Counted from the stretch's first letter, positions 26,500-47,668 are shown. The stretch: DNA of 64,000 bases from an uncultured Gammaproteobacteria bacterium (GCA_964390595.1 CAYMIA010000004.1:4023-68022), one strand, 5' to 3'. The notes: generated by a model not told the origin, from the sequence alone. A program made the numbers and translations.

Positions 26500-27483
26500 T
26501 TATCGTTTCGCAAGTGTTTTTTGAATACCTTGCTGGTAATCGACTTTGGGATTGTAGCCTAATTCTTTTTTGGCTTTATTGATATTATAGTGCCAGTTAT
26601 CAGCAACTGTGATTACCTTTTGGACTGTCAAGGGTGGTTCATTCCTGAAAATTTGTGGAGAGATTTGATAACCTAATTTATAGAGAGTTTCAAAAACAAA
26701 GGCTGCACTTTGCAGCGGGAATTTGGGAATAGTTTTAGACTTTGAAAAGATCTTTAGATTTTTCTTAACTAAATTTACTAGATCAATTAATTTAATTGGT
26801 TTGCTTGACGCGATGAGATATGTTTGGTTTTGTCCGCCTTTTTTAATTGCTTTGATGTAGGCTTCCGTTAGGTCATCGATATAGACTAAATGTAGCAGAT
26901 TATTACCGCTACCGATTATTGGAAATTTGTTTTTTTTGATTAACTCCACCATTTTAGTAACCATGCCGAGTTCAGTATCGTTTGGACCGTAGACAATAGC
27001 GGGACGGATTACAGTGTAGGGGATGCCGTATTTTAAGCAAACTTCTTGCAAGTTATTTTCAGCGATTATTTTGCTTTTTCCGTAAATATCTTTAGCGAGC
27101 AGTGGACTGTTTTCATCGGTTGGGTGATCTTTCAGCCGGCCATAAACATAGACTGAGCTAGTGTCGATAATATGTTTAAGTTGGCTGTTTGGAGTGATCA
27201 ATTTCTTTAAAACATGAGCGTTAACTTCTAAAAAATTACTGGGGATGTTCCAATTGGCGCGGATAGCGGCTAAGTGGATAAAAACATCATTGCTATTTAG
27301 TTCTTTTGTAAAAGTCTCTGGTTTGAGCAGATCTCCAATGACTGTTTTGACGCCCTGTTTTTTAAGTAGTTCAGCCTTTGATTTATCTCGGGCTAAAGCG
27401 GTGATCTGATACTTTTCTTTTTTTAGTTTCTTAATCAGTTCTCGACCGATGAAACCGGTTGCACCTGTAATAAATATCTTCAT
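26500..27483 (-). CDS. NAD-dependent epimerase/dehydratase (extended SDR, UDP-sugar 4-epimerase-like)
   Basis: [16 protein letters not shown] and the catalytic YGKSK. About 327 aa. Confidence 0.75.
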   Translation of the reverse strand: MKIFITGATGFIGRELIKKLKKEKYQITALARDKSKAELLKKQGVKTVIGDLLKPETFTKELNSNDVFIHLAAIRANWNIPSNFLEVNAHVLKKLITPNSQLKHIIDTSSVYVYGRLKDHPTDENSPLLAKDIYGKSKIIAENNLQEVCLKYGIPYTVIRPAIVYGPNDTELGMVTKMVELIKKNKFPIIGSGNNLLHLVYIDDLTEAYIKAIKKGGQNQTYLIASSKPIKLIDLVNLVKKNLKIFSKSKTIPKFPLQSAAFVFETLYKLGYQISPQIFRNEPPLTVQKVITVADNWHYNINKAKKELGYNPKVDYQQGIQKTLAKR

Positions 27484-44942: not shown

Positions 44943-47668
44943 AATCCAAAAGAATTTATCTACTGTTTCTGGCTGTATTAATTTTTGTTTTTTCTAACTT
45001 ATTACTATTTTCTCCGAGAGGCGCTAATGATTTTCCTTATATTTTTTCGGAGCAGCTTAAGACTGGGTTCTCGCTACCTTTGACCTGGATTACTAAATAC
45101 AGCGATGGTTTGGGGGCTGTTAATACTCCAATACTTTGGAGCTTTCCAATTGATTTTATTTATGGAATGCTGTCTTGGCTGGGTTTTGATTTTGCTGTTT
45201 TAGAACTAGTTGTGGGTATTTTACCGATTCTAGTAGTTGGACTTTTTAGCATCAATGCTTTTTTAAAACATTTTGAATTTTCTTTAAAAGCGCGGCTGGT
45301 CGCAACGCTATTTTTCCTGACAAATACTTATGTTTTGTCTTTGATTGATGGAGGTCAATTGCAGATTGCATTAGCATATAGTCTGTTTCCATTGGTTTTC
45401 TTAAAATCAATCCAATCAATCTCTGAGTCTTTTAAGTCAAAATTGGTGGCTAGCCTACTGATAGTTGGGTTGGGTTTTTGCGATATTAGGTTTGTGGTTA
45501 TTTTGGCGATTTTACTTTTGGTTTATTTTATCTTTAATTTAACCAGAAATTTTAAAGATCAGGCTTACCTTTGGAAATGGATTTATTTTGGTGTTATAGC
45601 TGGGATAGTGATTTTGTTAGCTAATTTTTATTGGATATTACCGCTGATTGCTCATGAAGTCGCCTTTTTACCAGCAACTTACTTGCGGGCTAGCCAGGTT
45701 GGTTTTTTAAGTTTTGCTAATTTGGGTCAGGCGTTTTTTGTTCAACAGCCGCACTGGTACCGAAATATATTTGGATTGACCACCCCACTTTTGCCAGCAT
45801 TTGCTGGAATTCCCCTAATTGCTTATTTGGCAATTTTTATAAAACGCAGGGATTTAAATGTAGTCTTTTGGGTAATTATTAGTTTGATGGGAGTGTTTTT
45901 GGTTAAGGGTGAAAATGCACCTTTAACTCAAGTCTATCCTTGGCTTTTTTCTCATATTCCGGGTTGGGTGCTCTTTCGTGATCCGACTAAGTTTTATGTA
46001 CTGATTTGTTTAGCTGATGCGTTTTTAATAGCGGTGACTTTGGACTGGATAGTCAAATATTTTAAGCGATTTTTGTGGCTTTCAACTATTTTGATTTCAC
46101 TGATCGTAGTGTATTTTGTATTGCTAATTTACCCGGTCTATACGGGGAAAATGACAGGGATGTTAAACACGCCAGTCTGGCGTGAGCAATACACTAAACT
46201 AGCGGATATCTTAAGAAGGGATGCTAGTTATTCACAAGTTCTTTGGTTGCCTACCAAGAGTCCACTTGGTTATTCCAGCCCCACTCATCCATCACTTGAG
46301 GGTTTAACCATATACCAAAAAAGGCCTTTTTTGATTGGAGTTGTTGGGAGTTATGAATTATTTAATTTTATTAGGGAGTCTAATTTTGTTTCACAGCTAA
46401 TGGATATATCATCTGTTGGTTATATTGCTTATCCACCTCTTGATCCGCGAAGAATCGATCAGCGCGATCAATATAGTCCTGATTTATACAAATATTACAA
46501 TCAATTTTTGGATCAACTAAGTCAGCTGCCATGGCTTTCCAGGGTTACTGATTCGCCGATCCCTTTATTTAAAACTAAGCATAATCAACCAAAGATATTT
46601 GTCGCTCAAAATTTATGGTGGGTGATTGGTTCAGATGATATTTATGAACAGGCCAGCCAAAGCGGAACATTAAAAAACAACGCTTTAGTTTTTGGGCAGC
46701 AAAATCCACAGGTTGGGGAAAGATTAACTGATTTTAGAAATGCCAAGGTTGTTTTACATCAAACTCATGAGTTAGATTTAGCAGCTAGTTTGATTGATCA
46801 GAAAGAGCTATTATTTCCAGCCTCAAAGCTGGCTTTTGATCCAGATTCAACTGGATGGTGGAAAAGAGAGAGTTCAGATCTACTAAATTGGCGGGATTTT
46901 CTGCAAACCAAGTATCAGCTAGATAACTTAGACTTTGATTTAGGTGGGGGTTTTGCAGTTGCTGAAGGGAGCAAGCAGTTGAATGTGGGAACAGGCCGGG
47001 ACTATAAAGGATCATTGCTTTTAGCTAGGGTAATGGAGAGTACCAGGAGTGGTCAACTGACATTTAGTCAAAAAGGTGAACAGATTGGTACCGCCACTAC
47101 CAAGAATGAGAGGCCAGATTTAGTCACTATTAAAATGACTGGCTATGGAAGAATACCTGATAAGATCTCAACTTTTGAAAAAACTCACTTCTACTGGAAG
47201 GAGATTGGAGTATTAACTCAAAACTCACCCATAACTATTGAGTCAATGGGCGACATTAATGTAGTTAATTCTTTGGCGGTTGTTCCTCAAGATATCTGGA
47301 AAGTAAAAAAGCAATTTGTTGCGGCACTGTCAAAAGAGGGTCGGATTGTTCCCTTTGAGCCGAGCAATGAAGATCTCTCAGCTGTTAGTTTTCAAGAGAT
47401 CAATCCGGCTAAATTTAAGGTTAACATAAGTGGTCTAACTCATCCGGTAATGTTAATTCTCGCTCAGAATTATGATTCAGGGTGGGTTATTGGGAAAACC
47501 TCATCCTTACCCATTTATAGTTTGTTAAACGGCTATAAGATTGAGGGTGATGGAGAGTTTATTCTTGAGTACTATCCGCAAAGATTTGTTGTTCCAGGTT
47601 TGGTGGTTTCAGGAGGGGCATTTCTGTTGATTTTATCTTTGCTTCTTTGGAAAGTAAGGAGAAATTAG
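44939..47668 (+). CDS. very large polytopic membrane protein, YfhO/AftD-like putative glycosyltransferase
   Basis: At 909 aa. The N-terminal TM core is paralogous to the 31214 gene. The C-terminal soluble domain ends in AQNYDSGWVIG...LNGYKIEGDGEFILEYYPQ. Confidence 0.55.
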   Translation: MKSKRIYLLFLAVLIFVFSNLLLFSPRGANDFPYIFSEQLKTGFSLPLTWITKYSDGLGAVNTPILWSFPIDFIYGMLSWLGFDFAVLELVVGILPILVVGLFSINAFLKHFEFSLKARLVATLFFLTNTYVLSLIDGGQLQIALAYSLFPLVFLKSIQSISESFKSKLVASLLIVGLGFCDIRFVVILAILLLVYFIFNLTRNFKDQAYLWKWIYFGVIAGIVILLANFYWILPLIAHEVAFLPATYLRASQVGFLSFANLGQAFFVQQPHWYRNIFGLTTPLLPAFAGIPLIAYLAIFIKRRDLNVVFWVIISLMGVFLVKGENAPLTQVYPWLFSHIPGWVLFRDPTKFYVLICLADAFLIAVTLDWIVKYFKRFLWLSTILISLIVVYFVLLIYPVYTGKMTGMLNTPVWREQYTKLADILRRDASYSQVLWLPTKSPLGYSSPTHPSLEGLTIYQKRPFLIGVVGSYELFNFIRESNFVSQLMDISSVGYIAYPPLDPRRIDQRDQYSPDLYKYYNQFLDQLSQLPWLSRVTDSPIPLFKTKHNQPKIFVAQNLWWVIGSDDIYEQASQSGTLKNNALVFGQQNPQVGERLTDFRNAKVVLHQTHELDLAASLIDQKELLFPASKLAFDPDSTGWWKRESSDLLNWRDFLQTKYQLDNLDFDLGGGFAVAEGSKQLNVGTGRDYKGSLLLARVMESTRSGQLTFSQKGEQIGTATTKNERPDLVTIKMTGYGRIPDKISTFEKTHFYWKEIGVLTQNSPITIESMGDINVVNSLAVVPQDIWKVKKQFVAALSKEGRIVPFEPSNEDLSAVSFQEINPAKFKVNISGLTHPVMLILAQNYDSGWVIGKTSSLPIYSLLNGYKIEGDGEFILEYYPQRFVVPGLVVSGGAFLLILSLLLWKVRRN

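Follow-up and report, generated by a model that had tools for sequence, protein, structure and literature searches.

Three predicted AftD-like glycosyltransferases and a fourth GT-C-fold protein of another lineage in a putative surface-glycan island of a Microgenomates-type bacterium

A 64,000-nucleotide stretch of DNA (GCA_964390595.1, CAYMIA010000004.1:4023-68022; the whole of it is called the window here) encodes four large membrane proteins that have zero matches in Pfam, even at E≤10. The locus raises the question of what these proteins are, whether they belong together and which process they could serve. A first-pass annotation of the window had read them as one family of four to five proteins related to YfhO or AftD. 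Our analysis indicates that three of them are very probably divergent paralogs from the AftD branch of the GT-C glycosyltransferases and that the fourth comes from another GT-C lineage. All positions, including those used as names of open reading frames (ORFs), are counted along the whole window; 31214, for example, is the ORF at 31214-33229. The four genes, with protein lengths in amino acids (aa) and transmembrane (TM) helices where these help to tell them apart, are as follows.

27480..29234, minus strand: GT-C-fold membrane protein, 584 aa, about 12-13 TM helices
31214..33229, minus strand: predicted AftD-like GT-C glycosyltransferase, 671 aa, minimal form
39014..42316, plus strand: predicted AftD-like GT-C glycosyltransferase, 1100 aa
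44939..47668, plus strand: predicted AftD-like GT-C glycosyltransferase, 909 aa

All four ORFs exist where they had been placed, with one correction. The start of the 1100-aa protein moves from 39053, which is an internal Met at codon 14, to 39014.

Plain BLASTP among the four proteins linked a single pair, 31214 and 44939 (E 1e-7, 27% over about 448 aa). Family profiles were built from database homologs (A1 for 44939, A2 for 39014, A3 for 27480 and A4 for 31214) and compared with hhalign. A1 and A2 matched across the membrane core with a probability of 99.6% (E 6e-25), and 31214 matched A1 with 98.6% (E 6e-16). The A4 profile aligned with A2 (100%, E 3e-50) and with A1 (100%, E 7e-58) over 650-680 columns. 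As judged from these profiles, 31214, 39014 and 44939 form one superfamily and are homologous over nearly their whole length; the paralogy of the membrane cores of 31214 and 44939, which had been recognized before, is confirmed. 27480 was tried as a further member and rejected, with hhalign probabilities of 6% against A1 and 1.6% against A2. The family of four to five is thus reduced to three, and its presumed fifth member turns out to be an unassignable fragment of 66 aa.

The three related proteins are built on a common plan: a GT-C core of 11 helices is followed by an alpha/beta soluble domain and then by a C-terminal beta-sandwich with the motif NGYANxW. This C-terminal motif is part of the last beta-sandwich, and hhalign of the final 80-105 residues gave probabilities of 98.8% (E 4e-17), 97.8% (E 1e-12) and 99.0% (E 5e-18). 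In the controls, unrelated C-termini scored no higher than 0.7% and 20 column shuffles no higher than 1.0%, so that the motif similarity seen in the first-pass annotation is borne out by alignment statistics. The proposed extension of the motif to the C-termini of two genes of the PF10131 type in the window (6805-9393 and 9356-11071) did not hold. These C-termini can be placed in register with the family (YFPGW..VDGK against SFNQSW..VDNQ), at a probability of 6.6-12%, which is not significant in a test that had only two sequences and low power. At the level of the A1 profile, the match to the PF10131 genes of the window reached 97.3%, and among the distant homologs of 44939 one carries PF09586 and one PF10131.

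The tie to AftD itself comes from the 31214 family. The Pfam model GT-C_AftD (PF11847, the former DUF3367) was matched by 25 of 34 sampled 31214 homologs (best E 1.3e-23). Some homologs, one of them from Saccharimonadales, are named 'alpha-(1->3)-arabinofuranosyltransferase family protein' at NCBI, and 3 of the 34 sampled are fused to a GT2 domain. Searched against PDB sequences, the A4 profile matched AftD (6W98) with E 4.5e-9 over AftD residues 48-569, and a second, weak stretch aligned 'SFNPGW...NGYANaW' with 'SINPGW...NGWQQGW' at AftD 1209-1264. The A1, A2 and A3 profiles gave no match in the same PDB search; A1 and A2 reach AftD only through A4, with which both align at a probability of 100%.

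The predicted structure leads to the same relative. When an AlphaFold2 model of 44939 (predicted local distance difference test, pLDDT, 91.3; predicted TM-score, pTM, 0.89) was used in a structure search, AftD (6w98_A) came first (E 1e-10, TMq 0.53), followed by STT3, AftA, AglB and DPY19, all of them GT-C enzymes. The beta domains of the model match CBM6-type modules. Comparison with 6W98, as had been suggested earlier, returned AftD as the best PDB match, and a transporter fold was not seen. The assignment of 31214, 39014 and 44939 as AftD-like holds up on transitive homology to AftD and PF11847 together with this modelled fold.

The essential residues of AftD are K39, D41, E251, K361 and D474 (bioRxiv 10.1101/2019.12.22.885152); the numbering of the 6W98 sequence is that of the preprint plus 3. 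The lysine K361, which lies in 'RNVHKLEP', aligns with K357 of 31214 (FRNPYEKF), K351 of 44939 (FRDPTKF) and K733 of 39014 (FRNMYDKF). All members of the 44939 and 39014 families have this lysine, as do 33 of 34 members of the 31214 family. D474/E475 of AftD align with E452/E453 of 31214 and with E454 of 44939; the position is occupied by an acidic residue in 31 of the 34 sequences of the 31214 family and in 28 of the 31 of the 44939 family. All three families also have an acidic residue in the first outer loop, just past the first helix: D31 of 44939 and D384/D385 of 39014 are invariant, and E31 of 31214 is found in 33 of 34 sequences.

The individual proteins differ in what is added to the common plan. 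The minimal form is 31214, in which the 11-helix core and the soluble domain are followed by one beta-sandwich that ends with NGYANAW and there is no C-terminal anchor. Its conserved residues, in ORF numbering, are E31, Y123, N126, R136, KG 327-328 and RNPYEK 352-357. With 1459 representative clusters at E≤1e-3, its family is a large one. Compared with this minimal form, 44939 has an extra sandwich and a C-terminal helix. Its core of 11 helices contains the invariant D31 of the first outer loop, IDGGQ 136-140, KG 323-324 and FRDPTKF 346-352, and is followed by the alpha/beta soluble domain (about 405-660), two beta-sandwiches (about 670-878) and a C-terminal TM anchor (879-908); the protein has about 12-13 TM helices. 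Orthologs of 44939 occur in Woese-, Davies-, Ames- and Blackburnbacteria.

The 39014 protein is the largest and belongs to a rare family of 14 proteins. It has about 17 TM helices and begins with a family-specific N-terminal module of about 355 aa (window 39014-40080), which consists of a signal anchor, a conserved outer domain of 165 aa and five TM helices. The extracytoplasmic domain of about 170 aa that had been described for this protein is therefore real; it has an invariant D, G and W and a KYVFP motif, and the extension as a whole is conserved in the family. The N-terminal domain had no match in Pfam or PDB. The helix count of the module puts the GGDD loop (382-385, invariant) outside the membrane. 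From there on the protein follows the common plan with FRNMYDKF 727-734, the soluble domain, a beta-sandwich with FGYANGW and a C-terminal TM helix at 1069-1087. The earlier statement that all of the proteins have more than 12 TM helices thus applies to 39014, roughly to 44939 and 27480, and not to 31214, which has 11.

A different picture emerges for 27480. Its C-terminal soluble part is short (about 475-584, some 110 aa) and unrelated to that of the other three, so the large soluble domain that had been ascribed to all of the proteins is missing here. The family is small (7 proteins), and Pfam gave nothing useful when it was run on members of this family or of the 39014 family. Weak local similarity in short stretches was found to PTPS_related (82%), to PMT_2 (64%) and to the 31214 family (91%). 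The AlphaFold2 model of 27480 (pLDDT 75.5, pTM 0.80) has its best PDB matches exclusively among GT-C enzymes, namely DPY19, STT3, PglB, ArnT and Pmt4 (E 1e-3 to 1e-2, probability 1.00); AftD is absent from these top matches. G26-D27 is invariant and lies in the first outer loop. On the strength of this model, 27480 is assigned to the GT-C enzymes, as a member of a separate family that is small. The AftD part of the earlier call, AftD/DUF3367-like or YfhO-like, consequently stands for three proteins; the YfhO part stands at clan level only, and 27480 belongs with the GT-C superfamily only.

Two related loci bear on the 27480 family. In one (L083), an AglJ-like GT2 ends 3 nucleotides (nt) upstream of the 27480 homolog. 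In the other, from Daviesbacteria (L082, JACPDA010000004.1), five tandem paralogs of the family directly follow a GT2 gene and a gene of the RGP family (PF03214); the latter, at 4792-5940, sits between the GT2 and the paralogs. Plant members of the RGP family are UDP-arabinopyranose mutases. The gene in L082 hints at an arabinofuranose donor for the 27480 family. No RGP gene is present in the window.

The four proteins lie in a window with 37% G+C that is dense in ORFs, mostly on the plus strand. Judged from its gene content, the window appears to be almost wholly an island for surface-glycan biosynthesis. Family scans revealed many GT2 and GT4 glycosyltransferases, methyl- and acetyltransferases, epimerases/dehydratases and one UDP-N-acetylglucosamine 2-epimerase. 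The source is assigned to a Microgenomates-class bacterium of the candidate phyla radiation (CPR, Patescibacteria); this clade is read from the homologs of the target proteins, which were found in Woese-, Davies-, Ames-, Levy- and Blackburnbacteria. Many related contigs (L003, L006, L009 and others) carry the label 'uncultured Gammaproteobacteria' (binchicken metagenome-assembled genomes). These labels look like placeholders, because the gene content of the contigs matches that of loci labelled as Microgenomates lineages.

The further genes of the window that are needed for the argument are listed below.

3890-5572, 11049-12659, 12625-14334 and 14331-15962, plus strand: four PMT_2/ArnT-like GT-C paralogs with a mutual identity of 30-36%
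6805-9393 and 9356-11071, plus strand: two PF10131 (PTPS_related) GT-C genes, 35% identical to each other
17929-19182: second Wzx-type flippase (Pfam Polysacc_synt)
19192..20004, plus strand: ArnC/PgfS-like GT2, directly downstream of the flippase at 17929-19182
24165..25580, plus strand: methyltransferase-GT2 fusion, with an S-adenosylmethionine-dependent methyltransferase domain and an AglJ/DPM1/ArnC-like GT2 domain
47681..48955, plus strand: flippase of the Wzx type, multidrug/oligosaccharidyl-lipid/polysaccharide (MOP) superfamily (Polysacc_synt, Pfam E 7e-18)
51627-52769, plus strand: protein of 380 aa with 9 TM helices and no Pfam match, probably a GT-C
62626..63261, plus strand: priming phosphoglycosyltransferase (Bac_transf, Pfam PF02397, E 2e-61)

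Together with the three AftD-like genes and 27480, the four PMT_2-like genes (3890, 11049, 12625 and 14331), the two PF10131-like genes (6805 and 9356) and probably 51627 bring the complete GT-C-type genes of the window to at least ten, probably 11, so that the original count of four to five was too low. Three of the four PMT_2/ArnT-like paralogs stand in direct tandem with overlapping ends, and 6805-9393 has an N-terminal GT2 domain fused to its PF10131 GT-C part. 51627 matches the N-terminal half of the PMT_2 paralogs (93.5%, E 2e-7) and is probably a short GT-C that has no soluble domain.

The NCBIfam matches of the GT2 domain in 24165 (AglJ E 4e-32, dolichyl-phosphate hexose transferase E 1e-15, ArnC E 6e-10) and of 19192 (ArnC E 2e-10, PgfS E 1e-10) all fall below curated cut-offs. 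AglJ, DPM1 and ArnC synthesise polyprenyl-phosphate sugars. Because its GT2 domain resembles these enzymes, 24165 is a candidate for the maker of a lipid-linked donor. The priming transferase 62626 indicates that the island also encodes a Wzx-dependent pathway with undecaprenyl-diphosphate (Und-PP)-linked intermediates, which could supply the acceptor glycan.

Next we consider the gene neighbourhood. For relatives of 44939, one genome per species was scanned, which gave 200; 80 loci were kept, including every locus with a meaningful organism label. The organism-labelled loci among the 80 are all from Microgenomates lineages. The window proteins were mapped to these loci by tblastn, and the 65 loci used as a denominator here are those with enough sequence. 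A homolog of the flippase 47681 was found within 3.5 kb downstream of the 909-aa ortholog in 57 of 65 loci, with a median gap of 84 nt, and a GT2 with its best match to 24165 or 19192 within 6 kb downstream in 40 of 65. Genes resembling the fusion 24165 follow the flippase in many of the related loci. This answers in part the earlier suggestion that each protein might be paired with a GT2 or a flippase in related genomes: the flippase is a regular partner, the AglJ/ArnC-like GT2 a less frequent one. In 46 of 62 loci, one or two extra AftD-like paralogs immediately precede the 909-aa ortholog on the same strand; the best window match of these paralogs was 31214 in 42 loci and 39014 in 7. Six loci (L001, L027, L031, L046, L056 and L062) have a tandem pair of 39014-like genes directly upstream of the 909-aa ortholog; in L001 the pair occupies 7789-10014 and 10001-13159 (741 aa and 1052 aa).

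These data show that tandem arrays of two or three AftD-like paralogs beside a Wzx-type flippase are the norm in Microgenomates. The earlier view that five such genes in one locus would be exceptional is therefore not sustained, and the five-gene array of the 27480 family in Daviesbacteria is a further case. The gene order is kept across Woese-, Davies-, Ames- and Blackburnbacteria, which points to a common pathway of extracytoplasmic glycosylation.

What could such a pathway look like? We infer the catalytic activity, the donor, the acceptor and the part played by the flippase by analogy with the AftD, Gtr and GT136 systems. In the first step, a cytoplasmic GT2 of the AglJ/DPM1-like type (24165 or 19192) would put a sugar on polyprenyl phosphate. 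A MOP/Wzx-type flippase (47681 or 17929) would then flip the loaded lipid to the outer face of the membrane, where each GT-C protein would move the sugar from the lipid onto a growing cell-surface glycan. The active site is expected between the first outer loop, with its invariant Asp or Glu, and the alpha/beta soluble domain. The C-terminal beta-sandwiches, which resemble carbohydrate-binding modules (CBMs) and include the NGYANxW module, may hold the acceptor polymer. Separate paralogs presumably add separate sugars or linkages. There is a precedent for the type of flippase: in the characterised GT136 three-component system, a flippase of the MOP superfamily (MATE type, multidrug and toxin extrusion) has been proposed for a lipid-monosaccharide (PMC11127046). 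We find the three-component mechanism of GT2, flippase and GT-C plausible and lean towards it. The explanation as a whole, that is, a glycan island with AftD-like paralogs and 27480 that serves three-component extracytoplasmic glycosylation, is in our judgement likely.

Several observations weigh against this explanation. About 20 kb separate 44939 from the AglJ-like GT2 genes of the window, and the GT2 assignments of 24165 and 19192 are the sub-cut-off matches mentioned above. None of the four large proteins reaches any glycosyltransferase model of Pfam or NCBIfam, and a predicted structure is available for one of the three AftD-like proteins, namely 44939. With respect to the essential residues of AftD, in 39014 the position of D474 is not acidic, with D839 nearby, and E251 has no clear counterpart in the families. 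The register between the acidic residue of loop 1 and D41 of AftD was not established, as a sub-profile of the N-terminus of the 31214 family failed to reach AftD. Finally, 47681 is possibly an ordinary Wzx for Und-PP-oligosaccharides, in view of the priming transferase and of the Wzy_C-like gene 56893.

The last point leads to the alternative that survives best. The AftD-like proteins could use a flipped Und-PP-oligosaccharide, either to polymerise it or, as ligases or oligosaccharyltransferases, to pass a finished glycan en bloc to protein, lipid or cell wall. A Wzx-type flippase directly downstream in 57 of the 65 loci would suit such a role, as would the priming Bac_transf gene and the many cytoplasmic GT2 and GT4 genes of the island. 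The structural matches include STT3, PglB-type and AglB enzymes, and there is no clear Wzy in the window, where 56893 gives a sub-threshold Pfam match to Wzy_C only. However, the nearest relative by both profile and structure is AftD, which uses a lipid-monophosphate sugar donor, and the GT2 that is co-conserved with the proteins is of the AglJ/DPM1-like type that makes such donors. Two or three tandem paralogs also suit linkage-specific single-sugar transferases better than one ligase. We consider transfer or polymerisation of a preformed oligosaccharide unlikely.

A second alternative starts from the sole NCBIfam match among the four proteins, which links residues 298-456 of 44939 to MmpA below threshold (E 4e-10). 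MmpA, which is required for the export of trehalose lipids, is partly homologous to AftD residues 1-668 and has no recognised catalytic motif (PMC8698533). By this comparison, the AftD-like proteins would be non-catalytic membrane scaffolds or helpers in lipid transport. Yet the MmpA match is confined to the shared core, while the residues aligned with K361 and D474/E475 are kept in addition to the acidic residue of loop 1. CBM-like domains are present as well, and the neighbours are genes for glycan synthesis and not for lipid transport. A role of this kind is very unlikely. The idea that the four proteins are unrelated polytopic transporters with a C-terminal motif that arose by chance can be dismissed almost with certainty: none of the four matches Pfam and some transporters of the major facilitator superfamily appear low in the fold-search list of 27480 (probability <0.35), but the high-probability structural matches of the 44939 and 27480 models are all GT-C enzymes, and the profile-profile statistics are strong for core and C-terminus with clean controls.

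Some other features of the window deserve mention. The region 23117-35510, which contains 27480 and 31214, is a mosaic of alternating minus and plus strands within an island that is otherwise on the plus strand; this suggests an insertion or rearrangement. The product of 42309-43859 (plus strand, 516 aa), a gene between two of the AftD-like genes, combines a signal anchor with about 340 residues outside the membrane and five helices at its C-terminus. Family searches gave no match for it, and none of the 80 related loci has a counterpart; a relationship to the N-terminal module of 39014 was considered and rejected (probability 5.7%). A protein with tetratricopeptide repeats (20017-21015, plus strand) is encoded among glycosyltransferase genes. 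Three further plus-strand genes have no family match: 5582-6853 (423 aa, 8 TM helices), 55433-56026 (197 aa) and 63204-64000, which is partial and leaves the right end of the window. The 423-aa protein showed no relation to the GT-C families that were tested. At the left end is the fragment that had been counted as a fifth member of the family.

1..199, minus strand: gene fragment with its ATG at 199, which leaves the left end; 66 aa visible in the six-frame translation

The partial gene that had been reported at 1-201 thus exists, on the minus strand, and its membership in the family is not supported. It encodes a signal anchor followed by 'PFPGDLL'. A comparison with every family that we collected gave no significant match; the fragment may be another GT-C.

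The fold is a known one, as are the likely chemistry and the three-part logic, and no new principle is proposed here. What is new are unannotated members of the known GT-C/AftD type. For three families that are blank in current domain libraries, an assignment as AftD-type glycosyltransferases is now available, and for a fourth, one as a different GT-C enzyme; this improves the annotation and defines conserved residues for mutation. To our knowledge, little is known about the cell envelope of CPR/Patescibacteria, and a literature search in a limited collection found no paper on GT-C enzymes in Patescibacteria. One may speculate that the Microgenomates module of one to three AftD-like GT-C proteins, a MOP flippase and an AglJ-like GT2 builds a major envelope polysaccharide outside the membrane from lipid-linked single sugars, although we regard this as doubtful. 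If it were true, the assembly of arabinan in mycobacteria would be the model, the module would be a core envelope pathway of this CPR class, and the N-terminal module of 39014, with its 165-aa outer domain and five helices, would count as a new accessory element in a GT-C enzyme.

How do the proteins of the window compare with known systems? With AftD (Rv0236c, Pfam family PF11847 GT-C_AftD; 6W98 is the structure from M. abscessus) they have in common the GT-C fold, the 11-helix N-terminal core and the alpha/beta soluble domain. Beta-sandwich modules of the carbohydrate-binding type are also common to both, and the C-terminal 'PGW ... NG(Y/W)xxxW' sandwich aligns with AftD 1209-1264. The differences are in size and elaboration. 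AftD has about 1400 aa, 16 TM helices (11+5) and three CBMs plus a structural sandwich, whereas the window proteins, with 671-1100 aa, add at most one C-terminal helix to the 11-helix core and have one or two sandwiches. AftD also binds acyl carrier protein. The host here is a CPR bacterium, and the window gives no indication of a decaprenyl-phospho-arabinose pathway, the donor route of AftD: Pfam and NCBIfam scans of the window ORFs detected no UbiA-type phosphoribosyltransferase and no DprE1/E2.

The kinship with YfhO (PF09586) and PTPS_related (PF10131) is one of fold at the clan level only. None of the four proteins matched the YfhO model of Pfam, and no genes of a teichoic-acid or arabinan pathway were found in the window.

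Three-component systems such as GtrA/GtrB/Gtr*, CsbB/GtcA/YfhO and the GT136 pentofuranose system of Citrobacter place a GT-C protein beside a flippase and a GT2 of the polyprenyl-phosphate-sugar-synthase type, an arrangement that the related loci resemble through their flippase and their AglJ/ArnC-like GT2. CBM-like domains are fused to the GT-C in both cases. In contrast to these systems, two or three tandem GT-C paralogs occur here in place of one, and the components are scattered over about 25 kb. No small flippase of the GtrA/GtcA type is present in the window; its ORFs of at least 150 aa stand so close together that they leave no space for one of that size. MmpA (NCgl2761/Rv0226c), finally, has the AftD-type membrane core in common with 44939. 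It is a protein of about 474 aa that lacks CBM-like domains and serves in trehalose-mycolate transport, whereas the context of 44939 is glycan synthesis.

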